Position numbers and translations under genes: made by a program. A stretch of 64,000 bases of DNA from Bacteroidota bacterium. Its GTDB lineage: Bacteria > Bacteroidota > Ignavibacteria > SZUA-365. Shown here piece by piece: positions 3,629 through 57,113 of this stretch. A model generated the notes under the pieces. It saw only the letters and a list, made by a program, of their open reading frames with translations. It had not been told where the DNA came from and ran no database searches. Within the stretch, counting starts at the first letter, position 1. Each line of letters starts with the position of its first letter. The stretch covers positions 35,669 through 99,668 of the forward strand of contig QKAF01000099.1 of the NCBI GenBank assembly GCA_003246455.1, in the 5' to 3' direction.

Positions 3629-4933
3629 TTATTTGTCGGCCTCGCCCATCACGGGATCGAGGCTGCCGAGGACGGCGAGAATGTCGGAAAGCAGGTGCCC
3701 TTTCAGCAGCATGGGCAGCGCCTGCAGGTTGCAGAATGACGGGGAACGGATCTTCAGCCTCCAGGGGTGTCCCTCTCCGCGGCTGACGATATGGAAGCCC
3801 AGCTGTCCCTTCGACGATTCGATGGCATGATACACTTCGCCCGACGGCGGATTGACGCCGTGGTTGATGATCATGAAGTCGTGGATCAGTTCTTCCATGC
3901 GCGTGTAGATGCGCTCCTTGCGCGGCAGCACCTTCTTGGGCTCGTGCGCGTGGACGGGGCCCGCGGGCAGCTTGTCGAGGCACTGGTACACGATTTTCAG
4001 GCTTTCTTTCATTTCGCGCAGACGCACGTAGTAGCGCGCGAGCGAATCTCCTTCGTTCTCGGTGATCACGTCGAAATCGAGCTGATCGTAGACGAGATAC
4101 GGATTGTCGCGGCGCAGATCGAGCGGAATGCCGGAACCGCGGAGATTCGGACCGGTGAGTCCGATTGCCAGCGCCTGTTCGGCGGAGATCACGCCGGTAT
4201 TCCGGCAGCGGTCGAAGAAAATCCGGTTGCGGTTGAGCAGGCGCTCCCCTTCGTCGAGGCGTGCGAGGAACTGGTCGGCAAAGGCGCGGATCGCCGCGGT
4301 GCCTTCGTCGGTGATGTCCTGCGCGATGCCGCCGATGCGCGTGAAACTGGTCGTAAAGCGCGCGCCGACCACGAGGTCGAAGATGTCATGGATTTTCTCG
4401 CGTTCGCGGAAGCACCAGAGCAGAAGCGTCATGGCGCCGACATCCATCGCCATGACGCCGAAGCCGACGAGATGCGAGGAGATGCGTGCGAGTTCGGCCA
4501 GCAGCGTCCGGATGTACTGCGCGCGCAGCGGCGCCTCTATGCCGAGCAGTTTCTCGACCGCGAGGATGTACCCGATGTTGTTATGCACCGGCTGCAGATA
4601 GTCGAGCCGGTCGGTATGCGTGATGAACTCGTGGTAGGATTCATTCTCGGCGATCTTTTCGTATCCGCGGTGCAGGTAGCCCAGCTCGGGCATGGCGCTG
4701 ATGATGGTTTCGCCGTCGAGGCGCAGAAGGATACGCAGCACACCGTGGGTCGCAGGGTGCGAGGGTCCCATGTTGAGGATCATATCGTTCTCGAGCGGAT
4801 CGTCGAACGAGAGATCGGGATCCATATCGAGCAGTGCCTGAAGGAGCTTGGTACGCTTTTCCTTGGGCGGGAGATGATCGGTCGGAATCGGGGCGTCGAA
4901 CAGGTCGTGCGTGGATTTCGTCTTTTCGCTCAT
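3629..4933 (-). CDS. nuoD: NADH-quinone oxidoreductase subunit D
   Basis: MILNMGPSHPATHGVLR N-terminal block and RIRSPSF...DPVMGEADK C-terminal block of the 49-kDa subunit. Confidence 0.95.
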   Translation of the reverse strand: MSEKTKSTHDLFDAPIPTDHLPPKEKRTKLLQALLDMDPDLSFDDPLENDMILNMGPSHPATHGVLRILLRLDGETIISAMPELGYLHRGYEKIAENESYHEFITHTDRLDYLQPVHNNIGYILAVEKLLGIEAPLRAQYIRTLLAELARISSHLVGFGVMAMDVGAMTLLLWCFREREKIHDIFDLVVGARFTTSFTRIGGIAQDITDEGTAAIRAFADQFLARLDEGERLLNRNRIFFDRCRNTGVISAEQALAIGLTGPNLRGSGIPLDLRRDNPYLVYDQLDFDVITENEGDSLARYYVRLREMKESLKIVYQCLDKLPAGPVHAHEPKKVLPRKERIYTRMEELIHDFMIINHGVNPPSGEVYHAIESSKGQLGFHIVSRGEGHPWRLKIRSPSFCNLQALPMLLKGHLLSDILAVLGSLDPVMGEADK

Positions 4934-4936
4934 GGG

Positions 4937-5464
4937 TTAACCTCGATTCGGCAGCGGCAGCGCGCCGGGAATTCCCATCAGCGGGTAATCCTTCCGCAGC
5001 GGGTAGTACTCGAAATCCTCCGGCATATAGGCACGCCGCAGATCGCGGTGTCCGGGGAACGTGATCCCGTACATGTCGAATGTCTCGCGTTCGTACCAGC
5101 CCGCGCCCGGAAACACGCCGGTGATGCTCGGGACGGAGGGATCGTTTTCCTCGACGCGCACCTTGAGATGGATGCGCTGCTTGCACGTGAGGGAGAAGAA
5201 ATGGTAGTTCACCTCGAAACGCTGCTTCCGCGTCCAGGCATCGATGCCGAACACGTCTTCGCACAGGGGGAAGGGGCAGGCTTCATTGTCGCGCAGCCAC
5301 GTGGCCACATCGACGATCGCGGCGCGTCCGACGACGACGATCACATCGTCGCGGAACTCGCGCACCTCTTCCACCGCGTCGCCGAAGCGCTCGCGGAGGG
5401 AATCCACGGTTTGTTGCAATACGTTGTTCATGTACTTCGTGCGGAGTTGCGCGTCACCGTTCAT
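4937..5464 (-). CDS. nuoC: NADH-quinone oxidoreductase subunit C
   Basis: The block ...PGAGWYERETFDMYGITFPGHRDLRR... is the 30-kDa subunit signature. It is separate from nuoD (3-nt gap). Confidence 0.9.
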   Translation of the reverse strand: MNGDAQLRTKYMNNVLQQTVDSLRERFGDAVEEVREFRDDVIVVVGRAAIVDVATWLRDNEACPFPLCEDVFGIDAWTRKQRFEVNYHFFSLTCKQRIHLKVRVEENDPSVPSITGVFPGAGWYERETFDMYGITFPGHRDLRRAYMPEDFEYYPLRKDYPLMGIPGALPLPNRG

Positions 5465-5485
5465 GGAGCGAACGGCGAAAGCGGA

Positions 5486-5992
5486 TTATGAGACGATGAT
5501 CGGTTCGTTGCTGTTGCGGTAGTCGAGCACGCTGGAATGCTGCACGATTTCCTGCAGCTTGATCAGCGCGTTGAACAGGTTTTCGGGACGCGGCGGACAG
5601 CCGGCGGTGAACACATCGACGGGCAGGAACTGGTCGATGCCCTGCACGACCGAGTAGCTGCGGAACATGCCGCCCGAGGAGGCGCAGGCGCCCATGGCGA
5701 CCACCCAGCGGGGTTCGGCCATCTGGTCGTAGATCTTGCGCACGACATGGGCCATTTTATAGGTGACGGTTCCCGCCACGATCATCACGTCGGACTGCCG
5801 GGGAGAGAAGCGCATGACTTCCATGCCGAAGCGGGAAATGTCGTGACGCGGATCGCCGGCGGACATCAGTTCGATGGCGCAGCAGGAGAGTCCCATCGGC
5901 ATGGGCCAGAGCGAATTCTTCCGCGCCCAGCCGATGAGCGCGTCGAGCTGCGTGGTGAGATATCCTTCACCAAGCGCGGATTCTAATCCCAT
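5486..5992 (-). CDS. nuoB: NADH-quinone oxidoreductase subunit B
   Basis: N2-cluster Cys ligands in [16 protein letters not shown] and GCPPRPE. I place the start at the ATG at 5990-5992 (MGLESAL...), which overlaps the nuoA stop by 10 nt. The track ORF extends to 6076. Confidence 0.9.
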
Positions 5993-6339
5993 CGCAGGGC
6001 TCCTTTCTTCAATTCGTAGATAAAGCCGACGGCCAGCACGACGACAAACACGAGCATGACCACGAAGCCCGGCCATCCGAGTTCCCTGAAGCGCACCGCC
6101 CAGGGATACATGAACACCACTTCGATGTCGAAGATGATGAAGGAAAGGGCCACCATATAGTATTTGACCGAGAAGCGATAATGCGCCGTGCTTACGGGAT
6201 CAACACCGCTCTCGTACGTGCTCTGTTTCTCGCGGTAGGGACGCTGCGGTCCCAGCAGCCACGACATATTGACCGACACGACGCCAAAGATCGCCGCCAC
6301 GCCGATGATCAGGAATATGGGAATGTAGCTTTCGATCAT
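5983..6339 (-). CDS. nuoA: NADH-quinone oxidoreductase subunit A
   Basis: 118-aa three-TM protein with the YESG.DP and FIIFDIE..F.YPW blocks. Confidence 0.9.
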
Positions 6340-44634: not shown

Positions 44635-47600
44635 TTACCTGTAGGACGGCGCCGATTTGATATGAAGGAGATGTCCTTCGATCCGATCGACGAAGTTCAG
44701 CTCCGCGTTCGGAGCGTCCTCGAAGTGCCAGTACCCGACCAGATGGTCGGGCGGCGGTTCGGCGCCGCGCGCGAGACGTTCGATCTCTTCGTCGCACAGA
44801 AGCCGCCGCCAGATTGCGATATCCGCGATGCGCCGTGTCTGCCCGAGGGATTCCCGCATGACGTCGTGCAGACTCGCGGAGAACATGGTGTATTTGTCGT
44901 TGAATATCCCGAACGACATCCCCTCATACCGGTAATGCCAGTCGTGGTAGTCCGCTCCGTCGACGTTGCAGGGAGAGAGCGAGCCGCGCATCTCCCCGTC
45001 TACGAACACCTCGCGGATACCTGAGTACAGCACGCGGATGGCGATGTGGTGCCACCCGGGCGCAATGGAGCCCAGGATATCGGAGGCGCATCCGCTGTAG
45101 GAGGTTGCAACCGTGTCGCTGCTGAAGCTGACGTAGTGGTCCAGGTTCTGGAACACGAACGCCGTGCTCCGTTCCACGGTACTGTACCACCAGAACGCGA
45201 AGCAGGCGTCGCTCTTTTTTGGCAGCAGCTGCTGTGCGCAGTAAAGGTACGAGCCGGCTGGCAGGGTCAGGGCGGGGATTCCAAGCGGTCCGGCGCCGAG
45301 ACGCGGCAGGGATCCCTCGGGCTGAATCGGCGCCGTTGAGCGCACCTGTACGGGACGGTATCGCATTTCCGCGTCCTGCGAGGCGTTGCTGCCATTGAAT
45401 GCCGTGGCCTCACAGTTGGTTTCCATATCGAACACCGCTTGCAGCTTCGGCACGTTCCCCGGCAGCGACTCGTGCATGACCCGACTGATATCGTCTTCGT
45501 CGAGCATACTCCACCATATCCGGAAGTTGTCGACCTCGCATTCCAGATGGCGGTTCGCACGCGACGAATCCGCATACGCCCCGAGACTGACATACGGCGT
45601 CATGCGGTACCGAAGATCCAGCGTCGCCTGCCGTGAGAAAGCGAGCTTCCCGTCAAGATAGAACCGGATGCTGTGACGCGGGATCGAGTACGCAAGGGCG
45701 ATGTGGTGCCATTGATTCGGTTTCATCGGCATCGCGAGCGGAACAGTGAAGCGTTCGTTGCCGAGCATGATCTGGGGACGGCCGTCGCTGAAGTTCATCA
45801 GCAGTGTTTCCATGCCGGGATGCGTGGCGGAGCTGCGACCATTGTGGAGGAAACAGCCGTCCCAGTCGAGCGAGCGAACCCAGCTTTCCACCGTGAGTTC
45901 CCCGCTGGCGAAGGCGAGGCTTTTCGCGCCCCAGGACAGGTAATCCGGACCTGAACTCAGGCGAAGCGCATAGCCGGCCGACATCGCGCGTCCCGCGCTC
46001 CCGACCAGTTTCAAGCGAAAATACTCCTCGCCCCCGGGTTCGTCCCGGATGACCAGCGCCGCCTCTTTTTCCGATGCCGCGCTCGTCGGCGCATACATGA
46101 CGGTCACGGGCAGCGGCACGGTGCTTTCCAGGATATTCTCTCCCGCCCCCGAGCTGACGTACCATTCGCCATACCCGGGGCCTTCGATCGCGACGTACAC
46201 CTCGCGGTCATTCGGGGTCATGTTGTACAGCGAAAAACTGCGGGAGAATCCATCGCCGACCTCCAGGTCCCCGAAGGGGACAACGGGATCGCGGACGATG
46301 AGTCCGTCACGGAACGCCCATTCGAGCGAATCGTGCGGGTTGAAGACGATTGCGTTATTGCCGACTTCGATTCCCCGGACGATTTCGAGATTCGGGAAGG
46401 CCACAAAGGATCGGTAGAGCATCCCCCCCGCGACGAGCAGAACAATCAACGACAGCACCAGAATGAGGGACCGTGCGTGACTTCTCGCAAACGTCTGGAA
46501 ACGGTCGTACGGATTGCGCACCTCCGATTCGACGACATGTCCCGGGCGAAAGCAGTCGGAGAAATGTTCTGCCGTGTAGACTTCGAACCAGCGCTGCGGG
46601 TACTCCTGCTGGAGCTGCTGAACGTAGCGCTTCGCCTCCTCGATGAAATCTCCGGGAATGACGACACGGCGGAGGGGCGAGTGGAACGCCAGTTCGAGTT
46701 TTCTGCGCAGCGTTTCCCACGATGCGGTTTCCAGCATGCCGTGAGAATCGAGCGAGGCGATGCAGGCGGTGTCCGGGGAGAGGGCCCAACGGACACGGGC
46801 ATTCACCCGTCCGCTGAGATGGCAGACCAGTCCGACGGTCGCCGCCAGTCCGAGAGAACCGCCCGAGAACGCGGCGTGCAGATCGATAAACTGGAAAAAC
46901 ACCTCTCGTCGATCGAAACGATAACCCGTCCGCTGCTGCGTAAACGCGGTCGCCATATCGTTCGCCCCCTGCAGCTGGAGCCGTGTCTGATCGGCATCCG
47001 CACCGAGTACGTTGTTGATATGGATGCCGCCCGCACTGCTCCGCCGGGAAGAGATTTCCATCTGAAGCACCGCCCCCGACGCCGCGCCCTCGTCCTGATC
47101 CGTTTCCAGGAGCACGACGGAGACGGCATCCTGACGCGAGAAGATCGCGCGCCAGCGCTGCCGCGCCAGGAACAGCGGATGGTTCTCTGTGAGGATATCC
47201 TCCTGGATCTCGCAGTAGGCCTCGAACATTCCGTACGGCGCGGGGCCCGCGCCGTAAACCCGGCGCCAGGCACGATCGTCCGGATCATGCAGGGCCGCTC
47301 CTCCCTGACGCAGAAACGCATGCATTCCGCGCAGGTCGGCGGCATACGCACACGAAAGACATCCCTTGATCAGGGCTTCGTCTTTCGCCAGCTGCAGGGT
47401 GGAAGCATCTTTCAGGTCCCCGGAGAGGTCGTTGAGAAACGCGACGGACGTGGTCCACAGCTGGGGATGATGCCCCTGGGTGTACGGGTGCTGAAGCAGT
47501 CTGAGGAGGGTGCGCGACAAGGGCAGCAGGTACATCTTCCGCCACGCGATAGGGAGATGCGCGGTATCGCGGTAAAACGAAATCAGGGCGCTGAGCTGAA

Positions 47601-47691
47601 GCTGAGGTGAACGCCGGGAATGCAGGAGCGAATCCAGCGCGTTTGCAGCGGCGTCAAGATCCCTTGGAGTCTCGAGGCGTCCAGCAGACAT
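44635..47691 (-). CDS. 1018-aa single-pass membrane protein: helical N-domain, Lon-protease-like (S16) domain, TM, Ig-like beta-sandwich, 2x LamG (paralog B)
   Basis: Lon_C-like blocks AVSVVLLETD...GAVLQMEI...INNVLG...FSGGSLGLAATVGL...IASLDSHGML...RRKLELAF...RRVVIP. TM helix SLILVLSLIVLLVAGGMLY (aa ~407-427). FGDLEVGDGFSRSFSLYNMTPN is an ASH/choice-of-anchor-D-like domain. Two Laminin_G_3-like domains are present (WHHIALAYSIPRHSIRFYLDGKL...VDNFRIWWSMLDEDDI; GWHHIAIRV...VFVDGEM...IADIAIWRRLLCDEEI). No Walker A motif. Confidence 0.65.
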   Translation of the reverse strand: MSAGRLETPRDLDAAANALDSLLHSRRSPQLQLSALISFYRDTAHLPIAWRKMYLLPLSRTLLRLLQHPYTQGHHPQLWTTSVAFLNDLSGDLKDASTLQLAKDEALIKGCLSCAYAADLRGMHAFLRQGGAALHDPDDRAWRRVYGAGPAPYGMFEAYCEIQEDILTENHPLFLARQRWRAIFSRQDAVSVVLLETDQDEGAASGAVLQMEISSRRSSAGGIHINNVLGADADQTRLQLQGANDMATAFTQQRTGYRFDRREVFFQFIDLHAAFSGGSLGLAATVGLVCHLSGRVNARVRWALSPDTACIASLDSHGMLETASWETLRRKLELAFHSPLRRVVIPGDFIEEAKRYVQQLQQEYPQRWFEVYTAEHFSDCFRPGHVVESEVRNPYDRFQTFARSHARSLILVLSLIVLLVAGGMLYRSFVAFPNLEIVRGIEVGNNAIVFNPHDSLEWAFRDGLIVRDPVVPFGDLEVGDGFSRSFSLYNMTPNDREVYVAIEGPGYGEWYVSSGAGENILESTVPLPVTVMYAPTSAASEKEAALVIRDEPGGEEYFRLKLVGSAGRAMSAGYALRLSSGPDYLSWGAKSLAFASGELTVESWVRSLDWDGCFLHNGRSSATHPGMETLLMNFSDGRPQIMLGNERFTVPLAMPMKPNQWHHIALAYSIPRHSIRFYLDGKLAFSRQATLDLRYRMTPYVSLGAYADSSRANRHLECEVDNFRIWWSMLDEDDISRVMHESLPGNVPKLQAVFDMETNCEATAFNGSNASQDAEMRYRPVQVRSTAPIQPEGSLPRLGAGPLGIPALTLPAGSYLYCAQQLLPKKSDACFAFWWYSTVERSTAFVFQNLDHYVSFSSDTVATSYSGCASDILGSIAPGWHHIAIRVLYSGIREVFVDGEMRGSLSPCNVDGADYHDWHYRYEGMSFGIFNDKYTMFSASLHDVMRESLGQTRRIADIAIWRRLLCDEEIERLARGAEPPPDHLVGYWHFEDAPNAELNFVDRIEGHLLHIKSAPSYR

Positions 47692-47727: not shown

Positions 47728-50700
47728 TTATTCCCACCCGTAGACCTGCTTGACATGCAGGAAACGGTGGTTGATTTCATCAATATAGTTATTATTCGCG
47801 TCAGGAAGCTGCTCGAGCCGCCAGGACGCCACCAGTCCTTTTTTCGTGACGCGTTCTTGATCGATCAGATCGGCAATCTCTTTTTCCGAGAGAATGCGTT
47901 TCCAGACGTGAAGGGAACCGTAGCTTCGGGTATGGGACAGCGTGGGATGATACCAGTCATAGTACTTTGATGCAAGCTGCTGTTCCTTGTCGAAGCGGAA
48001 GCCCAGCATCATTCCCTCGAAGAGCGCATGCCAGTCCTGTCGCCCGGAAGCGACCGTACGCGATTCCGCCTTCAGCTGCCCGTCGGTATAGAACGCGACC
48101 TTGCCGTCTGCGGTCACCGTGCAGACTCCGGTATGCCACCCCGGTTCGATGTCGTAGGCCAGTTTTTTCTGCATGGTGAACAGCATGTTATTCTCGATGG
48201 AAATCCACCCACTTTCCTTGAGCACGTAATTGAAGTGTATCGCGGGTTCAGCGTCCTGCAGGAAAAGGAACGCGAAGGTCGCGTCCGTGTACCTCGGCAA
48301 TACCGGACGGACGGCGACAAGGTATCTCCCTGATGTGAGCGCAATCGCCGTATCGCCCCGGTCTCTCGTCAGCAGAAAGATATCCCTGCCCCGCGGCTCG
48401 AGACGGAGGTCGGAACGCACCAGAACGGGACGATGCAGCAGCGCACCGCTGTGGGCCTGCGTGTTGGCGTTGAACAACGTGTTTTCAACACTCGCGTCCA
48501 CGTCCCAGTACCCCGCCAGGTCCGGTGTAAGCCCCGACAGCCGGCGATGCATCGTCTGCCGTACCTCCTCCACGGTGCGGAAGCGATGCCACAGACGGAT
48601 TTCATCGATGTCGCCACGAAAGTGCAGATCGGACGTCGTTCCCGGGTTTCTCGCTCCGATAGTCACGAAGGGCGTTCCCGGACCGTCAAAGAGGAAATAG
48701 GCCTGCCGGTTCTCCAGTTCCTCTCCGTTGAGGTAGACGGCGATCCTGTGACGCGGGATGGAGATTGCCAGGGCGAGATGCATCCAGCGGCCGACTGCCG
48801 CCGCCTGGCTGCCATTCAGCACGAACATCCCGATCGCCGAACCGACCCGGTAATACATCGTGTCGGGAGTGACGAATCCGAAAAACAGGTCCTCGATCTC
48901 CGGTTTCTGCGAACCCGACTGGCCGTTGTGCAGGATCATCGCGTTTTTCAGCGGAGCATTGGGACGGATCCAGCATTCGAAGGTCGCCTCCTTGGTGCCG
49001 GAGGCGGTGATATCGAAAGCGGTGCTGCGCTGCCCGAAGTGAATCTGGTCGTCCCGTCCGTCGAGACGCAGTGCATAGCCGGCGGAGAGCGGCGATCCGG
49101 CCGCGCCCTCGAAGCGCAGGCGGTACAGCGCCTCGCCTGTGACCGGGTTCCGCAGCACCAGGGCGGCATTCTTGGAACTGCCTGCGTCCATGGGAGCGAA
49201 CATGACGGCGATACTCCGATTCTCCGCCGACGGGATGTTGAGCCGATCGTCTGCCGAATTGATATACCAATCGGTGGAATCCGGTCCCTCGATCGAAAGC
49301 CGGAGGTTCAGATTCGACGGCGTCATATTCCATATCTCGAAATGCCGTGTGAACCCGTCGCCGATTTCCAGATCTCCGAATCCCACATTGTTGTCGACAA
49401 GGGTCTTGCCGTCCCGGAAGCACCAGACGAGTGAGTCCTTGGGATTGAACACGATCGAGCTCGAGCCGACGCTGAGTCCCATCGTCTGTTCGAGATTGGG
49501 ATAGTCGTAGTACGCCCGGTACGCGAAGTATCCCCCGCCGCCGAAAAGAATCACGATCAGGAGAAGCAGGAAGGCAACGCCGTGGCGCACGAGAGATTCC
49601 CGCATGCGTTCCATGCCGCCGCGCGGATGGATGGCGAACACGCCCGCGTTCGTCTCCAGGTCGCGCACATGCGAGACGCCCAGCACCTCGAGACTGCGCT
49701 TCGGATGATCGCGCTGCAGCTGCTGCAGGTACAGCAGCGCTGATTCGCGGTGCGGCGCGGGGATGACAATTTTTTCGACCGGCGAACAGAACGCGGCCCG
49801 CAGTTTCTGCTCGATCAGATCCCAGCTGCCCGCCTCCACCGTCCCGTCTGTCGCGAGACTGCCGACGCAGGCAACCGTCGTGGGCAGGGTCCATCGCTGC
49901 GGAAGATTCATGTAATGCGTAATGCCTGCCGTGATCCCCGCTGCCGCTGCACAGCCGAGCGAGCCGCCCACAAGCGCGACGCTGGTTTCATGCAGGGAAA
50001 AATGGTAGCGGCGGTGTTCGGGCGTTTTCCCGAACCTTTCGGCGATCAGTCCTTCGCTGATCGTCTGCGCGCGTTTCAGCTGCTCGACGGTTTCGTATCC
50101 CTGGTCCCCGAGCAGGTTGTTGATGTTGTTTTCTCCCTGGCCCCCCTCCTGCGAAAGAATATCCATCAGCATCACGCGTCCGGCCGCATACCGATCATCG
50201 CCGTCCGCCTCCAGCAGGACGACCGCGACGGCGTCGGTGCGCCGGCGGTATTCCTCCCACTGCTCGAGCACCGTGGTGAACTCCGCAGGTACCGCGTCGT
50301 ACCGATTCCGCAGGACACCGACATAGGCCTTGAAGACGCCGAATGCCGTGGCCGACGCGCCGAACACGGAACTCCACTCCCCTGCGTCGAGCGCCCCTTC
50401 GAGGAGTTTCCATTCCACGAGGAACTCGTGCAGCTCGCGCAGCGCGGAAACGTAGGCATGCGAACGGATGGTATGCTCGACCGCGAGGGTATGCAGTTCG
50501 TCCATGGCCAGCCCTGCCGTGGCCCATGACTGGGCGGATATCCTGCGGTAGAACGCATACGCGTCTCTCCAGACCGGCGCCGGCAGGTTGCTCAGAGACG
50601 AGAAGCGCAGCAGTTCGAGGAATGAGGGAGCGAGCGGCAGCAGGTATCCGGAAAGCCACGATGCCGGAAGCCGGCAGGTATGTCCCCAGAATTCCGTGAT

Positions 50701-50823
50701 ATGCAGAAAGCGTTTCTGCGGGGAGGGCGTGATGAGCAGCGTCCTGTCGAGCGCACGCGCGGCGGCATCCAGCTCCACGGGAGTACGGATATACCCCGTG
50801 GGCCCGTTGTCATTCAACGGCAC
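47728..50823 (-). CDS. 1031-aa single-pass membrane protein: helical N-domain, Lon-protease-like (S16) domain, TM, Ig-like beta-sandwich, 2x LamG (paralog A)
   Basis: Colinear with paralog B over its full length. Blocks include AVAVVLLEADGDD, LVGGSLGCAAAAGI (Ser288, codon 49960-49962) and IEQKLRAAF...EKIVIP. TM helix GVAFLLLLIVILFGGGGYFAY (aa 415-435). Also FGDLEIGDGFTRHFEIWNMTPSN, WMHLALAISIPRHRIAVYLNGEEL...GDIDEIRLWHRFRTVEEV, and a second LamG ending in SLHVWKRILSEKEIADL. GTG start at 50821-50823; no nearby ATG. Confidence 0.65.
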   Translation of the reverse strand: MPLNDNGPTGYIRTPVELDAAARALDRTLLITPSPQKRFLHITEFWGHTCRLPASWLSGYLLPLAPSFLELLRFSSLSNLPAPVWRDAYAFYRRISAQSWATAGLAMDELHTLAVEHTIRSHAYVSALRELHEFLVEWKLLEGALDAGEWSSVFGASATAFGVFKAYVGVLRNRYDAVPAEFTTVLEQWEEYRRRTDAVAVVLLEADGDDRYAAGRVMLMDILSQEGGQGENNINNLLGDQGYETVEQLKRAQTISEGLIAERFGKTPEHRRYHFSLHETSVALVGGSLGCAAAAGITAGITHYMNLPQRWTLPTTVACVGSLATDGTVEAGSWDLIEQKLRAAFCSPVEKIVIPAPHRESALLYLQQLQRDHPKRSLEVLGVSHVRDLETNAGVFAIHPRGGMERMRESLVRHGVAFLLLLIVILFGGGGYFAYRAYYDYPNLEQTMGLSVGSSSIVFNPKDSLVWCFRDGKTLVDNNVGFGDLEIGDGFTRHFEIWNMTPSNLNLRLSIEGPDSTDWYINSADDRLNIPSAENRSIAVMFAPMDAGSSKNAALVLRNPVTGEALYRLRFEGAAGSPLSAGYALRLDGRDDQIHFGQRSTAFDITASGTKEATFECWIRPNAPLKNAMILHNGQSGSQKPEIEDLFFGFVTPDTMYYRVGSAIGMFVLNGSQAAAVGRWMHLALAISIPRHRIAVYLNGEELENRQAYFLFDGPGTPFVTIGARNPGTTSDLHFRGDIDEIRLWHRFRTVEEVRQTMHRRLSGLTPDLAGYWDVDASVENTLFNANTQAHSGALLHRPVLVRSDLRLEPRGRDIFLLTRDRGDTAIALTSGRYLVAVRPVLPRYTDATFAFLFLQDAEPAIHFNYVLKESGWISIENNMLFTMQKKLAYDIEPGWHTGVCTVTADGKVAFYTDGQLKAESRTVASGRQDWHALFEGMMLGFRFDKEQQLASKYYDWYHPTLSHTRSYGSLHVWKRILSEKEIADLIDQERVTKKGLVASWRLEQLPDANNNYIDEINHRFLHVKQVYGWE

Positions 50824-50883: not shown

Positions 50884-51387
50884 TCACGCGGAGAGGAGAA
50901 TCACTTTCATCGGCTCGATGTCGATGCTCGAGGTCCCGATCTCGAATACTCCATTGGAATCAGGCACGAATTCCCGGTCGATACCGTCGAAGCGGATACG
51001 GATATGCTGATCCTCGCTTCGTTCCGCGATAAAGAACCCGGTCAGCTGCTGCTCGAGGGTGTCTTCAATGACGCGAAGGATCGCGGCATTGTTGTTGAGA
51101 TACCATGTCCGTCGCAGACGGTACTGCGGGACGGCGGCTGCGGATGACTGTGCTGCCAGCCGATACGCGGTCTGGCGATACCCGCTGCCTTCTGACGGAA
51201 CGGCATCCGACTCCTGCATCATCTCTCCCGCGCTGGACAGGAAGTCCATGGCAAGCGCGAACTGCTCCCTGCAAAAAGAACAGGCGTGCATATGGGCGGA
51301 CGGTTCACCGCGCCTTGCGAGGGACAAGAGCGTCTTCAGATCGTGGTGCTCCATAATACCTGCTCCGAGATTGAGTGTATTATCCAT
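50884..51387 (-). CDS. Soluble protein with ZAS-type (HxxxCxxC) anti-sigma zinc motif
   Basis: ATG at 51385-51387 (MDNTLNL...); an alternative ATG lies at 51352-51354. H32-MHA-C36-SF-C39 (nt 51271-51294) matches HxxxCxxC exactly, with His14/His15 upstream as a possible fourth ligand. There is no TM segment. The C-terminal ~80 aa are beta-rich. Confidence 0.5.
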   Translation of the reverse strand: MDNTLNLGAGIMEHHDLKTLLSLARRGEPSAHMHACSFCREQFALAMDFLSSAGEMMQESDAVPSEGSGYRQTAYRLAAQSSAAAVPQYRLRRTWYLNNNAAILRVIEDTLEQQLTGFFIAERSEDQHIRIRFDGIDREFVPDSNGVFEIGTSSIDIEPMKVILLSA

Positions 51388-51423
51388 ATTTATTAATCCG
51401 TGCAGTTCGCACCCTGTGGCCAA

Positions 51424-51481: not shown

Positions 51482-52525
51482 TCATTCGTCCGCCGCAGGA
51501 TCCTGTTTGAGGTGTTTCTGCGCTTCCTGGACGACGCGTTCATACATGTAGGCGAATTTTCTCCGATATGTTGCCCTGAAACGTTCCGGGGAGAGTCCCG
51601 GCATGTACAGACGCAGGAACGAGTACCCCGAGCGGGCGTCGCTTCCCCGCTGCAGATCGAGAAAGGTGGACCGTATGGCGAGCAGCATGAGGTCGAATTC
51701 CCAGGCGCTCAGCCGTTCGCGCTGCACGTACAGATTCTCGAGCGAAGGCCGCACGGTTTCGATCGCCGTGTGGATGATGTGCGAGAGTGCGGACACGTCA
51801 TAGGAGATGGAGGCGTCGGGCTGCTCGTGCTGCAGCGTCGATTCGAGGTCGTGTCCGAGATACTCGACGGTTATCCGGATCACGTCCATCTCAAGGACGG
51901 CCTTCCGGTACTGATCCTGTTCTCGAAGAAAGCGGATTATGCTCCGAAAAATCTCGACAGCATCGGATCTGTTGTGGGCGCTGAAATCCGCGAGGGAATT
52001 CCGAATCACCTCCGGCGGCGCGGCTTCCTTGTGCAGATCCGCCAGCGCGGGGGATTCGACGACGTACCAGCGGCCGTCGAGCATGTCGCGGATCTCGATG
52101 CTCTCGGTCTTGCGCACGTACTTGCGCACCGCCCGCATCAGCGTGTGCTGGAGAGGATTCACCTCGGCGAAGATGCGCGGGAAATGCCGCTGGACGTTGT
52201 TGAAGATCACCGCGTCGTACAGGGACAGCAGGTCGACGTCGGATCCTTCCGCCACGGGGAGAAGCGCGTTGCGCAGCGTGCCGCAGCAGGTGTCTTCGCC
52301 CTCGGCCAGCAGCTCCGCGGAAATGTCGTACGAAAGATCCCGCAGTGTCAGTCCGAGGGTGTGCAGTCGGTAGTTCTTCCGTGCGCTGATCCAGCGGACC
52401 GCCTGCTCGGTGCGCGCAATGGTGCGGAGGATCAGTGCTTCCGCCATGGACGCATTCATCGGTCCGGCCAGCAGGGCTCGCAGCAGAGGGAGAAGATCGT
52501 GAGACGAATCGGCCGACATGCGCAT
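51482..52525 (-). CDS. Hypothetical protein, possibly a highly divergent sigma-70-family factor (347 aa from ATG 52525)
   Basis: First gene of the unit, immediately upstream of the ZAS-motif protein. There is weak resemblance to sigma region 2 (LRDLSYDISAELLAE ... AVIFNNVQRHF) and region 4 (RERLSAWEFDLMLLAI ... LSPERFRATYRRKFAYMYERV). The call rests on pattern recognition only. Confidence 0.3.
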   Translation of the reverse strand: MRMSADSSHDLLPLLRALLAGPMNASMAEALILRTIARTEQAVRWISARKNYRLHTLGLTLRDLSYDISAELLAEGEDTCCGTLRNALLPVAEGSDVDLLSLYDAVIFNNVQRHFPRIFAEVNPLQHTLMRAVRKYVRKTESIEIRDMLDGRWYVVESPALADLHKEAAPPEVIRNSLADFSAHNRSDAVEIFRSIIRFLREQDQYRKAVLEMDVIRITVEYLGHDLESTLQHEQPDASISYDVSALSHIIHTAIETVRPSLENLYVQRERLSAWEFDLMLLAIRSTFLDLQRGSDARSGYSFLRLYMPGLSPERFRATYRRKFAYMYERVVQEAQKHLKQDPAADE

Positions 52526-52544
52526 ATTCCGTTGGGTACAGACG

Positions 52545-52552
52545 AAAATATA
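52545..52552 (-). promoter_or_regulatory. Candidate Bacteroidota-type -7 promoter element (TATATTTT on the - strand) for the four-gene unit
   Basis: It matches 7 of 8 positions of TAnnTTTG, about 20 nt upstream of the ATG at 52525 and just downstream of the strong terminator. Confidence 0.25.
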
Positions 52553-52569
52553 CAGTTTTCCGCAGGCGC

Positions 52570-52607
52570 AAAAAAAACCCGCCACCCGTAATCAGCGCGG
52601 TGGCGGG
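52570..52607 (-). terminator. Strong intrinsic terminator ending the suf/Rrf2 transcript
   Basis: CCCGCCACC (52578-52586) pairs with GGTGGCGGG (52599-52607). On the - strand the stem is followed by T8 (A8 at 52570-52577 on +). An A5 run on the other side makes it potentially bidirectional. Confidence 0.85.
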
Positions 52608-52628: not shown

Positions 52629-53105
52629 TCAGGGTGCGGGCAGTTCCACGCTTTCCCGCGGGACATGCACAGACGGCACATGCGCCGCGTGTTCCCCTGT
52701 CAGGAGATCGGCCAGCGTGGTCGATTCCAGCACCCCGTCAATGGCGGTCTGAACTCTCCGCCACAGGGGCCGAATGGAGCAGGCAAACGTGTGCGCGCAG
52801 ACTTCTTCAGTTCCGGAGAAATGGTCACAGAATCCGGGTTTGTAAAACCGCCCGCCCAATGCCGCAAGGACATCGCTGAGAACGATCTCGTTCACCTGCC
52901 GGGAAAGCGTGTATCCCCCTTCCTGTCCGCGCACGCTTTCAACGAACCCGTTAATGCGCAGGATGCGCAGAAGCTTCGCGACATACGCCTGAGACAGGCC
53001 TTCCGCGTCGCTCATTTCCGGGATGGTCATCGAGGCCTCCGGCCCCTTGCGTGCGAGCTGCAGGAGGCAGCGTAATCCGTATTCTTCCTGGGAACTGAAC
53101 TTCAT
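52629..53105 (-). CDS. Rrf2-family transcriptional regulator (IscR/SufR-like) with Cys cluster
   Basis: ATG at 53103-53105. MKFSSQEEYGLRCLLQLAR...YVAKLLRILRINGFVESVRGQEGGYTL is a winged HTH. The Cys ligand candidates are CDHF...C.H.F.C. The 5' part of track ORF 52629..53543 is not supported. Confidence 0.8.
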   Translation of the reverse strand: MKFSSQEEYGLRCLLQLARKGPEASMTIPEMSDAEGLSQAYVAKLLRILRINGFVESVRGQEGGYTLSRQVNEIVLSDVLAALGGRFYKPGFCDHFSGTEEVCAHTFACSIRPLWRRVQTAIDGVLESTTLADLLTGEHAAHVPSVHVPRESVELPAP

Positions 53106-53118
53106 TGCCGCGCCCCGA

Positions 53119-53652
53119 TCAGTTGAGCCGCGGAATGCGGGATCCGCATGTCCGCTCATATTCCAGTTTATCGTACTCCTCTTTCGGGACCGACGGTCCC
53201 TGCCGCGTGCAGAGCTGCGCGAAGCTGTCCTGGAGCTCCGCGGCGATTTCCGCGGCGCTTCGTCCTTCGATATCATGCCGTTGGAGCATGGACACGAGCT
53301 CTCCGTTCTTGAAAATCGCCATGCTCGGGGACGACGGCGCGTAGCCGGTAAAATACCCGCGCATGCGATCGACAGCATCCCGCTCCTGTCCGGCAAAGAC
53401 CGTGACAAACCGATCGGGGATGACCTCGTGCTGGAGCGCCTGCGTCGCAGCGGGACGTGCGCTGCCCGCGGCGCAACCGCAGACGGAATTGACGACGACA
53501 AACAGCACCCCGGGGGTCTCACGAACCGCGGTGTCGACCGCATCGGGCGAAAGCAGCTCTTCGAAACCGACCGCGGTCAGCTCGTCGCGCATGGGCTGGA
53601 CGGCCGTCTGATCGTACATCGGACCGCGTCCTATGGAAAGGTTCTGGAACAT
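53119..53652 (-). CDS. Bacilliredoxin-like (BrxA/BrxB, DUF1094) thiol-disulfide oxidoreductase with C-terminal extension
   Basis: The block PMRDELTAVGFEELLSPDAVD...VVNSVCGCAAGSARPAA...VFAGQERDAV...PSSPSMAIFKNGELV carries the CGC redox motif. The alternative start is ATG 53617-53619. Confidence 0.7.
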   Translation of the reverse strand: MFQNLSIGRGPMYDQTAVQPMRDELTAVGFEELLSPDAVDTAVRETPGVLFVVVNSVCGCAAGSARPAATQALQHEVIPDRFVTVFAGQERDAVDRMRGYFTGYAPSSPSMAIFKNGELVSMLQRHDIEGRSAAEIAAELQDSFAQLCTRQGPSVPKEEYDKLEYERTCGSRIPRLN

Positions 53653-53723
53653 GTATGTAAAACTCCTTTCGAAAACGAATCTGCACCGGATGCGAATGCG
53701 GCACCCGGCGTATGGGACAGTGA

Positions 53724-54062
53724 TTAAAAGAAACCCAGCTCAAGACGCGCCGCTTCCGACATCATCGACGGGTTCCAGGGCGGATCCCAGACGATATCGA
53801 GGTCGACGCCCGTGACGCCGTTGATCTGACCGACCTTCTCCTTCACCTCCGCCGGCAGCGACTGCGCGGCGGGGCAGTTGGGCGACGTCAGCGTCATCCG
53901 GATGGACACGCCGCCGTTCGATTTCACGCGGATCTGGTAGATCAATCCGAGTTCATATATATCGATCGGAATTTCCGGATCGTAGCACGTCTTGATCGCG
54001 TGGACGACGTTGTCGTCTATTTCCTGCAATTGCTCGTTTGTCAGCATGTGATCTTCCATCAT
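53724..54062 (-). CDS. sufT: DUF59/MIP18-family Fe-S assembly protein (SufT-like)
   Basis: The block DPEIPIDIYELGLIY...MTLTSPNCPAA is the DUF59 signature. It lies within the suf operon. Confidence 0.75.
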   Translation of the reverse strand: MMEDHMLTNEQLQEIDDNVVHAIKTCYDPEIPIDIYELGLIYQIRVKSNGGVSIRMTLTSPNCPAAQSLPAEVKEKVGQINGVTGVDLDIVWDPPWNPSMMSEAARLELGFF

Positions 54063-54511
54063 TCGGTCGACACCTTGTCATTCTCCCCCTGAAGCGCGCC
54101 GTGCATGGTATGCCACGGCAGCGTCGCACATTTCACGCGCACGGGAAATTCCGCGACACCGGCAAAGGCCGCAAGCTTGCCCAGCTCGGCGATATGCTCT
54201 TCCGCCGCAATCCGACCGGTGACGATACCGGTGAACAGTTCGAACAGCCGCTCGGCTTCATCCCGCTTCTTGCCTTTCAGGATGGCACTCATGATCGACG
54301 CGGACGCCTTCGAGATGGCGCATCCGCTGCCTTCGAAGCTCACCTCCGCGATGACGTCGCCGTCGAAACGCAGATAAAAGGTGTAGTGGTCTCCGCACAG
54401 CGGGTTATACCCGTCGAGCGTGGAGTCCGCATTCTCCATCTTGTGGAAATTGCGCGGGTGCTTGTTGTGATCAAGAATCACTTCCTGGTACAGATCACGA
54501 ATTTCATCCAT
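54059..54511 (-). CDS. sufU: SufU/NifU-like Fe-S cluster scaffold / sulfurtransferase
   Basis: LYQEVILDHNKHPRNF, NPLCGD and GSGCAISKASAS blocks. Confidence 0.85.
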   Translation of the reverse strand: MDEIRDLYQEVILDHNKHPRNFHKMENADSTLDGYNPLCGDHYTFYLRFDGDVIAEVSFEGSGCAISKASASIMSAILKGKKRDEAERLFELFTGIVTGRIAAEEHIAELGKLAAFAGVAEFPVRVKCATLPWHTMHGALQGENDKVSTE

Positions 54512-55782
54512 CAGGTAAAAACCTCCAGTACACTTTCAATGCCGTGCGCGAGCGCGTCGACGTCTTCCATCGTGTTGTAGAATGAAAACGACGCGCGCGC
54601 GGTGGCGGGGATTCCGAAATGCTGCATGACCGGCTGGGCACAGTGATGTCCCGCGCGCACGGCAATACCGTGCTGGTCGAGGATCGTGCCGATATCATGC
54701 GGATGAACCGCACAGAGCGTAAACGATATCACGCTGGCTTTATGGGTCGCCGTGCCGATGATGCGCAGGGCGTCGATGGCTTCCAGCTTTCGTGTCGCGT
54801 ACTCGAGGAGTTCGTTCTCGTGTGCGGCAATCGCCGCGATGTCCAGGCTGCGGAAATATTTCAACGCCGCGGCGAGTCCTATCGCGCCGGCGATATTCGG
54901 CGTCCCGGCCTCGAATTTGAACGGAACGTCGTTGTAGACGGTCCGTTCGAAACTCACGGAGAGAATCATATCACCCCCGCCCTGGTACGGCGGCATGTCG
55001 TCGAGCAGCGCTTTCTTTCCGTAGAGGACACCGATGCCTGTCGGGCCGTAGATCTTGTGCCCGCTCAGGGCGAAGAAGTCGCAATCGAGTTCCTGCACGT
55101 CGACGGGCATGTGCTGGACGGACTGGGCGCCGTCGACGAGCACGGGAACGCCGTGACGATGCGCGATCTCGATGATCTCCTTCACCGGGTTCACCGTTCC
55201 CAGCGCATTCGAAACGTGCACGATGGAAACGAGCTTTGTGCGCTCGCTCAGCATGGGCTCGAAGGCGTCGAGAATGAGTTCGCCATGTTCGTCGATCGGG
55301 ATCACCCGCAGCGTTGCCCCCTTCTCGCGGCAGATCATCTGCCAGGGAACGATGTTGGCATGGTGCTCAATTGCGGAAACGATGATCTCATCGCCCGGAC
55401 CGAGCTTCGAGCGGCCGAAGGTCTGTGCAACGAGGTTGATCGCCTCGGTGGTGCCGCGCACGAAAACGATCTCTTCCTCGCGCCGCGCGTTGAGAAACTG
55501 CTGCGCCGTACGGCGGGCATCCTCGTACAGATCGGTCGCGAGCTGGCTCAGGTAGTGCACCCCGCGATGCACGTTCGAATACTCCTCGCTGTAGAAGCGG
55601 GCGACGGTGTCGATCACGACCTTGGGCTTGTGCGTGGACGCGGCATTGTCGAGATAGATCAGCGGACGTCCCCGCACGGTCTGCCTGAGAGCGGGAAAAT
55701 CGGCGCGCACGCGCCAGGCATCGAAAGCTGCAGCGGAAGGCGCCGCGGCGACGGGGGCTTTATCGTTCCACATGGTACTCAT
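54511..55782 (-). CDS. sufS: Cysteine desulfurase, SufS type
   Basis: PLP-Lys block FFALSGHKIYGPTGIGVLYG and catalytic Cys block RAGHHCAQP. The ATG at 55780-55782 overlaps the sufD stop. Confidence 0.95.
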   Translation of the reverse strand: MSTMWNDKAPVAAAPSAAAFDAWRVRADFPALRQTVRGRPLIYLDNAASTHKPKVVIDTVARFYSEEYSNVHRGVHYLSQLATDLYEDARRTAQQFLNARREEEIVFVRGTTEAINLVAQTFGRSKLGPGDEIIVSAIEHHANIVPWQMICREKGATLRVIPIDEHGELILDAFEPMLSERTKLVSIVHVSNALGTVNPVKEIIEIAHRHGVPVLVDGAQSVQHMPVDVQELDCDFFALSGHKIYGPTGIGVLYGKKALLDDMPPYQGGGDMILSVSFERTVYNDVPFKFEAGTPNIAGAIGLAAALKYFRSLDIAAIAAHENELLEYATRKLEAIDALRIIGTATHKASVISFTLCAVHPHDIGTILDQHGIAVRAGHHCAQPVMQHFGIPATARASFSFYNTMEDVDALAHGIESVLEVFT

Positions 55783-57113
55783 CACTTTTTCCAGGATTCT
55801 TCAAGACGCCGGTACAGCCGATCGTTGATACCGTCACGCAGTGAGGCGATCGGGATTCGGGAGACAATGTCGCTGGCAAACGCAAACGACAGAATGTTCC
55901 CCGCCTGGGCGCGGTCGATGCCCCGCGAAAGCAGGTAGAACAGCTGGTCATCGTTGATGCGCCCGACCGTCGCGCCATGTGTGCATTTCACGTCGTCGGC
56001 GAAAATCTCGAGTTGGGGCCGCGTGTCGATCTGTGCAGTTTCGGAGAGCAGAAGGTTGTTGTTCGATTGCTTCGCATCGGTTTTCTGCGCATCCGGCCGC
56101 ACGATGATTTTCCCGGTGAATACACCGCGGGTTTCATCCGCCAGCACGCCCTTGTACTGTTCATGGCTGGTGCAGTGCGCGACGGCATGGTCAATCACGG
56201 TGAAATGGTCCATGTGCTGCGTCCCGCCAGGAACGAACGTCCCGTTCATCGTGCAGTGCGCGCCTTCACCCGACAGGACCCCATGAATGCCGTTGCGCAG
56301 GATCGACGAGCCCAGCCCGATGTAATGATTGCCGTAGTTTCCGGCACGCGCGACAGAAACGTAATTCGCGCCGACATGATAGGCTGCCGTGCTCTCGTCC
56401 TGCATCACGACATGATGGAGAACCGCATTCTCCCCGAGCCGGATGTCGGAGACCACGTTGTTGAAATACACGGCTCCCGCTTCACCGACATACTGCTCCA
56501 CGATACCGCACTGCGCATTTTCCTGCACGTCGATCACGATACGCGGATGCGCGACAAAGGGTCCCGCGGCGGCGCGGGAGAGAAACAGGAGGTGCAGCGG
56601 CTGTTCGATTACCGCGTTGCGTCGCACGGTCACGGAAACACCCTGCCGGGTGAACGCCGTGTTCAGCGCGGTAAAGGGATTGTGGCGAAAGGTCGCGGCC
56701 GCGGTGGCGGCACTTTCCAGGGGAAGCGCATTGTCATCGAGCGCAGAGGCGAGATCGCGCACCTCGATTCCTTCCGGAATCTGCGCGAGATCGGACAGCC
56801 CCTGCATGAAATACCCATCGACGAACAGCAGCGTCGGCGCATTCGGCATTGCCGTCGCCAGCGCCTCGGCCGTCACGCGAAGCGCCGCGTCCGCTTCGGG
56901 CCGCTCGGCGGGAGTGAATGTCGTGCCGGTGAGCGGATTGAAGTTGGTGTATCGCCAGTCTTCGTCACGCAGCGTCGGAAACCCCTGTTCGGCGAAACGC
57001 TGCAGCGCGTCGCGGCGCACGGCATGAAACGCGCTCTGCGCACCGCCGTTGAGCGAAGCCTCGAAGGCCGCGAACTGCTCCTGGTATGTCTGTATGGACT
57101 CTTCTCTGTTCAT
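55782..57113 (-). CDS. sufD: Fe-S cluster assembly protein SufD
   Basis: C-terminal block PQLEIFADDVKCTHGATVG..D..QLFYL.SRGI. ATG at 57111-57113. It sits between sufC and sufS. Confidence 0.9.
   Translation of the reverse strand: MNREESIQTYQEQFAAFEASLNGGAQSAFHAVRRDALQRFAEQGFPTLRDEDWRYTNFNPLTGTTFTPAERPEADAALRVTAEALATAMPNAPTLLFVDGYFMQGLSDLAQIPEGIEVRDLASALDDNALPLESAATAAATFRHNPFTALNTAFTRQGVSVTVRRNAVIEQPLHLLFLSRAAAGPFVAHPRIVIDVQENAQCGIVEQYVGEAGAVYFNNVVSDIRLGENAVLHHVVMQDESTAAYHVGANYVSVARAGNYGNHYIGLGSSILRNGIHGVLSGEGAHCTMNGTFVPGGTQHMDHFTVIDHAVAHCTSHEQYKGVLADETRGVFTGKIIVRPDAQKTDAKQSNNNLLLSETAQIDTRPQLEIFADDVKCTHGATVGRINDDQLFYLLSRGIDRAQAGNILSFAFASDIVSRIPIASLRDGINDRLYRRLEESWKK

Follow-up and report, generated by a model that had tools for sequence, protein, structure and literature searches.

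A highly divergent Lon-type proteolytic domain without an ATPase in predicted single-pass membrane proteins of a Bacteroidota bacterium

Two tandem genes for predicted membrane proteins, termed paralogs A and B, lie on the minus strand of a 64,000-nucleotide stretch of contig QKAF01000099.1 (assembly GCA_003246455.1, Bacteroidota bacterium), which is termed the window, and are preceded by two conserved genes, termed X and Y. Both proteins carry a domain that, by profile searches and a structural model, is a genuine, highly divergent Lon (MEROPS S16-type) proteolytic domain. Its homology to Lon is established, because the profile matches, the structure matches and the Pfam matches of family members all point to Lon. 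We hold it to be moderately probable that A and B are ATPase-less Lon-type Ser-Lys peptidases mounted on single-pass N-in receptors, which are predicted to cut at specific sites on the inner side of the membrane, independently of ATP. The order of the parts of A, from the N- to the C-terminus, is a helical domain, the Lon-like domain, one transmembrane (TM) helix and an ectodomain with Ig-like and LamG parts. B begins 36 nt downstream of A, and full-length pairwise alignment of the two proteins, in which the register is offset by 9 residues, shows 34% identity (E = 3e-179). Their features are as follows; AF2, HMM, ORF, EcLon and AfLonB stand for AlphaFold2, hidden Markov model, open reading frame, E. 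coli Lon and A. fulgidus LonB.

47728..50823, minus strand: gene of paralog A, 1031 aa (ORF and translation)
50239..50790, minus strand: N-terminal all-alpha domain of A, ~residues 12-195 (AF2 model)
49639..50238, minus strand: Lon-like (S16-type) proteolytic domain of A, residues 196-395 (Foldseek, profile and family HMM matches)
49960..49962, minus strand: codon of Ser288 of A, predicted nucleophile (aligns with EcLon S679 and AfLonB S509)
49864..49866, minus strand: codon of Val320 of A, at the position of EcLon Thr704 (HMM alignment)
49804..49806, minus strand: codon of Lys340 of A, predicted general base (aligns with EcLon K722 and AfLonB K552)
49525..49593, minus strand: predicted single TM helix of A, ~residues 411-433 (hydropathy scan; flanking charges fit N-in)
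44635..47691, minus strand: gene of paralog B, 1018 aa, laid out as in A (ORF and translation)
46534..47133, minus strand: Lon-like domain of B, residues 187-386 (pairwise and HMM alignment)
46855-46857, minus strand: codon of Ser279 of B (pairwise and HMM alignment)
Within 46534..47133, minus strand: Ile311 of B, at the position of Thr704 (HMM alignment)
46699-46701, minus strand: codon of Lys331 of B (pairwise and HMM alignment)
46402..46470, minus strand: predicted single TM helix of B, ~residues 408-430 (hydropathy scan, flanking charges)

Relationship of the domain to Lon

The AF2 model covers residues 1-410 of A, with a predicted local distance difference test (pLDDT) score of 75.6 and a predicted TM-score (pTM) of 0.73. 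When this model is compared with the PDB by Foldseek, 48 matches are obtained at E <= 1e-3 (E = 3e-7), and all of them are protease domains of Lon, BrxL or RadA. The target-normalised TM-scores against the proteolytic (P) domains 1rr9, 1xhk, 2x36 and 6wzv are 0.65-0.74, with root mean square deviations (rmsd) of 4.2-5.1 Å over ~200 columns. The RadA/BrxL-type entries are weaker structural matches (E = 5e-4 for 8rxc and 4e-5 to 8e-4 for 8eil and 8emh). A search of a viral structure library gives Lon proteins only.

The top PDB match of a profile made from three sequences (A, B and one metagenomic orthologue) is the protease domain of AfLonB (E = 0.019), and in this alignment G-G-S288 sits on G-D-S509 and K340 on the Lys of TQK552IEAA. 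A family profile made from 27 domain sequences of diverse members matches 45 distinct PDB sequences, all of which are Lon, with E-values of 6.5e-11 for AfLonB, 1e-7 for MjLon, 3.5e-5 for TonLonB, 5.5e-5 for EcLon and 1.2e-4 for MtaLonC. Against the P domain of EcLon, the family HMM reaches 30 bits. Pfam Lon_C is matched individually by five of the 27 members at E <= 0.01, and one relative (P0034) is above the gathering cut-off of this model (31.6 vs 21.1 bits). Judged from these matches, the closest Lon type is B-type Lon, and the family is a remote branch that is tied to Lon only via profiles. The S16 fold that a preliminary description of this DNA assigned to the domain is borne out by the Foldseek matches of the model, which are limited to Lon-fold protease domains, and by the 27-sequence profile, which hits Lon only. 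The span given there, 49756-50238, corresponds to residues 196-356 of A, the domain core; in full, the domain reaches ~residue 395 (49639).

The possibility that GGSLG...K arose by coincidence in a fold unrelated to Lon is extremely improbable. It would fit the results that Pfam and NCBIfam give nothing in the N-terminal 410 residues of the window proteins and that a single-sequence PDB search with these 410 residues gives nothing useful. A chance resemblance is, however, ruled out by the profile match to LonB and by the Foldseek match, at the E-values given above and with Lon folds as the only structural matches, and Pfam Lon_C is matched by members of the family.

Catalytic dyad and its conservation

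The minus-strand translation gives Ser288 of A exactly in LVGGSLG (codon 49960-49962) and Ser279 of B in FSGGSLG, each followed 52 residues later by the invariant Lys (K340 in A, K331 in B), as the preliminary description states. The surrounding motifs are SVALVGGS288LGCAAAAGI and EQK340LRAAF in A, and HAAFSGGS279LG and RRK331LELAF in B. In E. coli Lon translated from NC_000913, S679 is located in DGPSAG, and K720 and K722 are located in GGLKEKLLAA. The catalytic dyads are Ser679-Lys722 in EcLonA and Ser509-Lys552 in AfLonB (PMC9569914). HMM alignments place S288 on EcLon S679 and AfLonB S509, and K340 and K331 on EcLon K722 and AfLonB K552. In the alignment with EcLon, V320 also falls on T704, and the Pro of VLIP is matched by P355.

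Thus, the register proposed earlier, with the Lys on the second Lys of the K-E-K of Lon, is confirmed by HMM alignment. The statement that this second Lys is not the catalytic one is incorrect, since K722 is both the second and the catalytic Lys (NC_000913 translation, PMC9569914), and the "shifted dyad" that was built on it is abandoned, because S288/K340 and S279/K331 align with the canonical positions. The predicted dyad, as aligned, is therefore canonical in both paralogs. The Ser-Lys spacing is 52 residues vs 43 in Lon, a difference that results from a 7-residue insertion after the helix that follows Ser and a 2-residue insertion before the Lys helix.

To analyse conservation, the 150 best representatives were aligned; the library from which they were drawn is clustered at 50% identity. 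G286, S288 and K340 are the only invariant columns, so that the Ser and the Lys, whose conservation across homologues was a point raised in the preliminary description, are both kept in 150/150. G290 (136 of 150), G321 (141), G327 (146), F345 (139), S347 (145) and P355 (143) are nearly invariant. The residue equivalent to Thr704 is Thr or Ser in 132 of the 150 homologues, and one of these two is present in nearly all members outside the subfamily of at least 900 aa. The family consensus before Ser is Asp (G-D-S), as in LonB, and the window paralogs have G-G-S. The invariance of G286, S288 and K340 is, as far as an alignment can tell, the signature of selection on catalysis and favours an active protease over a pseudoprotease. 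Catalytic activity of the family domain is likely on this ground, and the predicted activity could be weakened in the subfamily of the window by the loss of the Thr and by the Gly before Ser.

A Lon-fold domain without turnover, which binds peptides or proteins or oligomerises, as in RadA/Sms, ComM and BrxL, and which would tether X or Y at the membrane by sequestration or partner switching, is an unlikely alternative. The Lon-like domains of RadA and ComM are not known to have the catalytic dyad. The absence of an ATPase for unfolding of substrates, the presence of Val or Ile in place of Thr704 in both paralogs and the occurrence of Lon-like domains of RadA and BrxL among the structural matches are consistent with such a binding module. 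It is disfavoured, because G286, S288 and K340 are the sole invariant columns among 150 homologues, which is expected of catalysis and not of a scaffold, and the best sequence matches are the P domains of active LonB and LonA, not RadA. YlbL, an AAA-less, membrane-anchored Lon-domain protease, bears on both sides of this question: the purified protein showed no activity in vitro, but clearance of the checkpoint protein YneA in vivo depends on the Ser and Lys of YlbL (PMC6051672). Thus, of the two earlier alternatives, the conservation pattern fits the active Ser-Lys protease, and the pseudoprotease like that of RadA or ComM is disfavoured by the invariant dyad.

Architecture, family breadth and known Lon-domain proteins

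Neither paralog contains a Walker A motif or an AAA match in Pfam or NCBIfam. Residues 15-194 of A are purely helical in the AF2 model, mostly with pLDDT values of 75-90, and this helical domain is common to the ~770-aa and ~1000-aa subfamilies. It has no Pfam match, and a PDB profile search with it yields nothing beyond designed helical repeats and weak matches of a TPR-like kind. An origin as a remnant of an AAA+ lid is not supported, the long Foldseek alignments to LonA fragments having rmsd values of 12-16 Å. According to a hydropathy scan, exactly one TM helix is present in 128 of 152 members, at a median of 19 residues past the domain, and no member has a TM helix before the domain. The mean number of Lys and Arg in the 15 residues before this helix is 4.2, vs 1.8 in those after it. 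By the positive-inside rule, the Lon-like domain is therefore predicted to be cytoplasmic, with N-in topology. In the ectodomain of A, Pfam detects Laminin_G_3 at 609-754 and, weakly, Cep192_D4/choice-of-anchor-D at 477-559; the ectodomains of relatives contain FG-GAP repeats, or FlgD_ig with a type IX secretion system (T9SS) tail. No PDZ match is found in the window paralogs with Pfam. The preliminary description had proposed a domain that lacks an ATPase, lies N-terminal to the single TM helix on the cytoplasmic side, and differs in layout from LonA/LonB, YlbL-type proteins and BrxL. All three proposals agree with these results, as AAA+ and PDZ are absent, the N-terminal domain is all-helical and the TM helix follows the domain.

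The family was recovered by an exhaustive HMMER search over 1.84 billion cluster representatives, which gives 637 representatives at E <= 1e-3, of which 221 have E <= 1e-10. Word-indexed homologue searches are nearly blind to the family, with one match, and none with the domain profile; the exhaustive search alone recovered it. The members range over Bacteroidota, Ignavibacteriales, Zixiibacteriota, KSB1 and Neomarinimicrobiota, and those that have been given a name (from Bacteroidota, KSB1, Neomarinimicrobiota and unclassified bacteria) are all called "hypothetical protein". Neither Pfam nor NCBIfam has a model for the family, and literature searches for a Lon-like/anti-sigma or Lon-like/LamG receptor family returned nothing relevant. 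The catalytic fold is already known; no earlier description appears to exist of the domain architecture, of the topology or of the X-Y cassette. The orthologue of A in the closest metagenomic contig (locus L001, 4638-7726) is called as two genes of 537 and 491 aa; either the gene is frameshifted or a pseudogene, or the assembly is wrong there.

The closest known counterpart is the P domain of LonB (A. fulgidus 1Z0W, M. jannaschii 1XHK), which resembles the window domain in its fold, in giving the best profile matches, in its dyad positions and, as far as the predicted topology goes, in being membrane-associated with the protease facing the cytoplasm. The Asp before Ser is shared by LonB and the family consensus, but not by the G-G-S of the window paralogs, which also lack the Thr equivalent to Thr704. 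In LonB, the anchor consists of TM helices that are inserted in the ATPase. Its membrane-anchoring subdomain lies in the ATPase module (PMC9569914). In contrast, the window proteins have no AAA+ module, which is carried by LonA, LonB and LonC alike, and have one TM helix after the protease domain, followed by a large ectodomain; the Ser-Lys spacing of LonB is 43, not 52. E. coli LonA (1RR9/1RRE) shares the fold (target-normalised TM-score of 0.74) and the dyad S679/K722, but it has Pro before Ser and is a soluble hexamer with an N-domain and AAA+, whereas the window protein is ATPase-less and predicted to be membrane-tethered.

YlbL (DdcP), SepM and LonH are similar to the window proteins, as predicted, in that an ATP-independent Lon-domain protease is held on one TM anchor. 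YlbL acts on a specific regulatory substrate and requires its dyad in vivo (PMC6051672), and SepM has also been described (PMC11197336). These proteins, however, carry a PDZ domain and have their TM helix at the N-terminus, with the Lon domain outside the cytoplasm, whereas in the window proteins the Lon domain precedes the TM helix, is predicted to be cytoplasmic and is not accompanied by PDZ. The extracytoplasmic part of the window family is made of LamG, Ig-like or FG-GAP parts, unlike the YlbL/SepM layout. RadA/Sms, ComM and BrxL share the Lon fold, with weaker structural matches, but are ATPase fusions, whereas the window family is ATPase-less and has an invariant dyad. The Lon-fold Ser-Lys domains known so far serve in ATP-driven quality control, in PDZ-linked extracytoplasmic processing or as dead binding modules; here, a Lon catalytic domain is predicted to form the cytoplasmic part of a putative single-pass receptor with ectodomains of ligand-binding type, and it is genetically locked to two conserved partners. 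For Lon enzymology, the family would be a naturally occurring minimal form of the Lon P domain, in which Ser and Lys lie 9 residues further apart and from which the auxiliary Thr is missing in one subfamily.

The X-Y-protease cassette and the proposed function

The minus-strand order in the window is X, Y, A, B, with intergenic gaps of 36-60 nt. The two upstream genes are as follows.

51482..52585, minus strand: gene X, helical, ~340-345 aa, likely start M23 at 52519 (conserved upstream of Y)
50884..51423, minus strand: gene Y, soluble, ~155-179 aa, likely start M24 at 51354 (conserved directly upstream of the Lon-like gene)

Alignments of orthologues and a database gene call (P0151, 345 aa) place the true starts of Y and X at these internal Met residues. 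Y contains a beta-rich C-terminal domain, no TM segment and an H-x3-C-x2-C motif (HMHACSFC) that is invariant across Y orthologues and is, as a sequence motif, the zinc anti-sigma (ZAS) signature. A Zixiibacteriota homologue of Y scores 20.8 bits against Pfam zf-HC2, below the cut-off of 22.2, and the Y profile has no matches in the PDB. The AF2 model of X (pLDDT 77) has no significant fold match; the chains listed first by Foldseek are sigma-A and sigma-S at E ~0.8-1.5. X has no Pfam match and no match in PDB profile searches.

X and Y precede the Lon-like gene in 27 of the 30 loci, being directly upstream of it in the window, L001-L007, L010-L024, L026, L028, L029 and L030. They take matching positions in the seven closest loci, which are Bacteroidota-type metagenome-assembled genomes (MAGs). 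In the ~700-aa FG-GAP subfamily (15 Zixiibacteriota and Ignavibacteriales loci), X is significant in 15/15; Y reaches E < 0.01 in 10 of these loci, and in the other 5 its match is weaker or was not captured. Both genes are found in 4 of 7 loci of ~760-795-aa members whose contigs were examined (L026, L028, L029 and L030). Thus, the cassette is kept across Bacteroidota-type, Zixiibacteriota, Ignavibacteriales and other FCB-group (Fibrobacterota-Chlorobiota-Bacteroidota) MAGs. The contig of L027 stops inside Y. In L009 (candidate division KSB1, 4914-5999), a canonical extracytoplasmic function (ECF) sigma factor (Sigma70_r2/r4) and an unrelated 177-aa protein replace X and Y. The Lon-like protein of L009 passes the Pfam Lon_C threshold. 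A 626-aa ORF lies between X and Y in L006 (7274-9154), and the two genes are adjacent in all other loci. In L026 (5001-9703), which belongs to a distant subfamily, tandem genes of Lon-like TM proteins (781 and 784 aa) follow X and Y, so that duplication of the receptor-protease recurs.

According to the proposed mechanism, binding of a ligand to the ectodomain, or oligomerisation, would switch on the Lon-like domain, which would then cut a folded or loop-exposed cytoplasmic regulator, probably at a specific accessible site of the partner rather than by processive degradation. The protease would be controlled by its ectodomain. The foremost candidates for cleavage would be Y, with its ZAS motif, and/or X, since all three genes are co-inherited in several phylum-level lineages, and cleavage would alter gene expression. 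YlbL, described above, offers a precedent for this mode of action. A signalling role through X and Y is possible, though tentative. The extended scheme, in which the ligand causes cleavage of Y and thereby frees X as a new class of transcription-factor or sigma-like protein, so that the whole is an undescribed transmembrane signalling system of the FCB group, is doubtful. Provided that the protease is active and cleaves X or Y, the cassette would represent a new module of proteolytic signal transduction, found in phyla that are largely uncultured; it would also supply annotation pipelines with a family that they lack and, if the signalling reading is true, would be a one-protein alternative to the multi-protease cascades of regulated intramembrane proteolysis.

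The arrangement resembles regulated anti-sigma proteolysis (DegS/RseP/ClpXP acting on RseA; the ZAS proteins RsrA and ChrR) in that a small HxxxCxxC protein is encoded beside a membrane sensor-protease, and the ECF sigma factor that holds the place of X in L009 recalls sigma/anti-sigma pairs, by analogy only. It differs in that the RseA-type cascade uses a periplasmic site-1 and an intramembrane site-2 protease, whereas here the cytoplasmic Lon-fold domain of the sensor itself would cut. Moreover, Y is soluble and X is not recognisable as a sigma factor, unlike the components of sigma/membrane anti-sigma systems.

Several points weigh against an ATPase-less receptor-peptidase that acts on X or Y. 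With respect to the protease, A and B do not match Pfam Lon_C (PF05362) even at E <= 1. The auxiliary Thr (EcLon T704) is replaced by Val320 in A and Ile311 in B, as it is by Ile or Val in 10 of 19 members of at least 900 aa, and Ser is preceded by Gly in the window paralogs, vs Pro or Asp. Residues 279-283 of the Ser loop have pLDDT values <50 in the AF2 model. With respect to the partners, we infer the cleavage targets purely from gene adjacency, and L025 has neither X nor Y as a neighbour. The window Y has no Pfam match. All comparisons of X with sigma factors were negative or not significant (hhalign 2% vs ECF sigma and 0.3% vs RpoS; Foldseek E >= 0.8), and calling it sigma-like would be speculation.

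Two other modes of action of an active dyad can be considered. ATPase-less Ser-Lys proteases, such as LexA and birnavirus VP4, often autoprocess. The dyad may likewise act on the chain that carries it, in cis or inside an oligomer, and cut at the linker between the N-domain and the protease or beside the TM helix, so that the freed cytoplasmic fragment is the signal. The linkers of low confidence that flank the Lon-like domain of A in the AF2 model (residues 207-233 and 398-410) and the conserved helical N-domain, which has no assigned role, would suit such self-processing. However, no conserved cleavage-site motif was identified, and the Zixiibacteriota subfamily has another N-terminal region yet retains X and Y; we regard self-processing as very unlikely. 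It is also quite improbable that the proteins act in general membrane-proximal quality control, as an analogue of LonB or FtsH that has no unfoldase and degrades unfolded peptides, with the ectodomain as an anchor or adhesin. This function would agree with the nearest sequence relatives, the P domains of the membrane-bound archaeal LonB. The specific X-Y-protease cassette is, however, tightly kept across several phylum-level lineages, the ectodomains are large, variable and of ligand-binding type, and the paralogs occur in tandem, and because of these three properties a specific, signal-linked role of the Lon-type peptidase is preferred.

The genes that surround the cassette are as follows. 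A convergent PAP2 gene lies beyond B. Upstream of X, a Suf-type Fe-S assembly cluster occupies 52629-55785 of the window on the minus strand, and locus L001 shares this synteny.

54511..55785, minus strand: class-V aminotransferase, SufS-like
54059..54511, minus strand: NifU_N
53724..54062, minus strand: FeS_assembly_P
53119..53652, minus strand: Disulph_isomer
52629..53105, minus strand: Rrf2 regulator

A terminator-like hairpin followed by T8 is located at 52580-52597 on the minus strand, between the Rrf2 gene and X, as detected by a pattern scan that is overall no richer in such hits than expected by chance. Its position suggests that X-Y-A-B is transcribed apart from the upstream Fe-S cluster genes.

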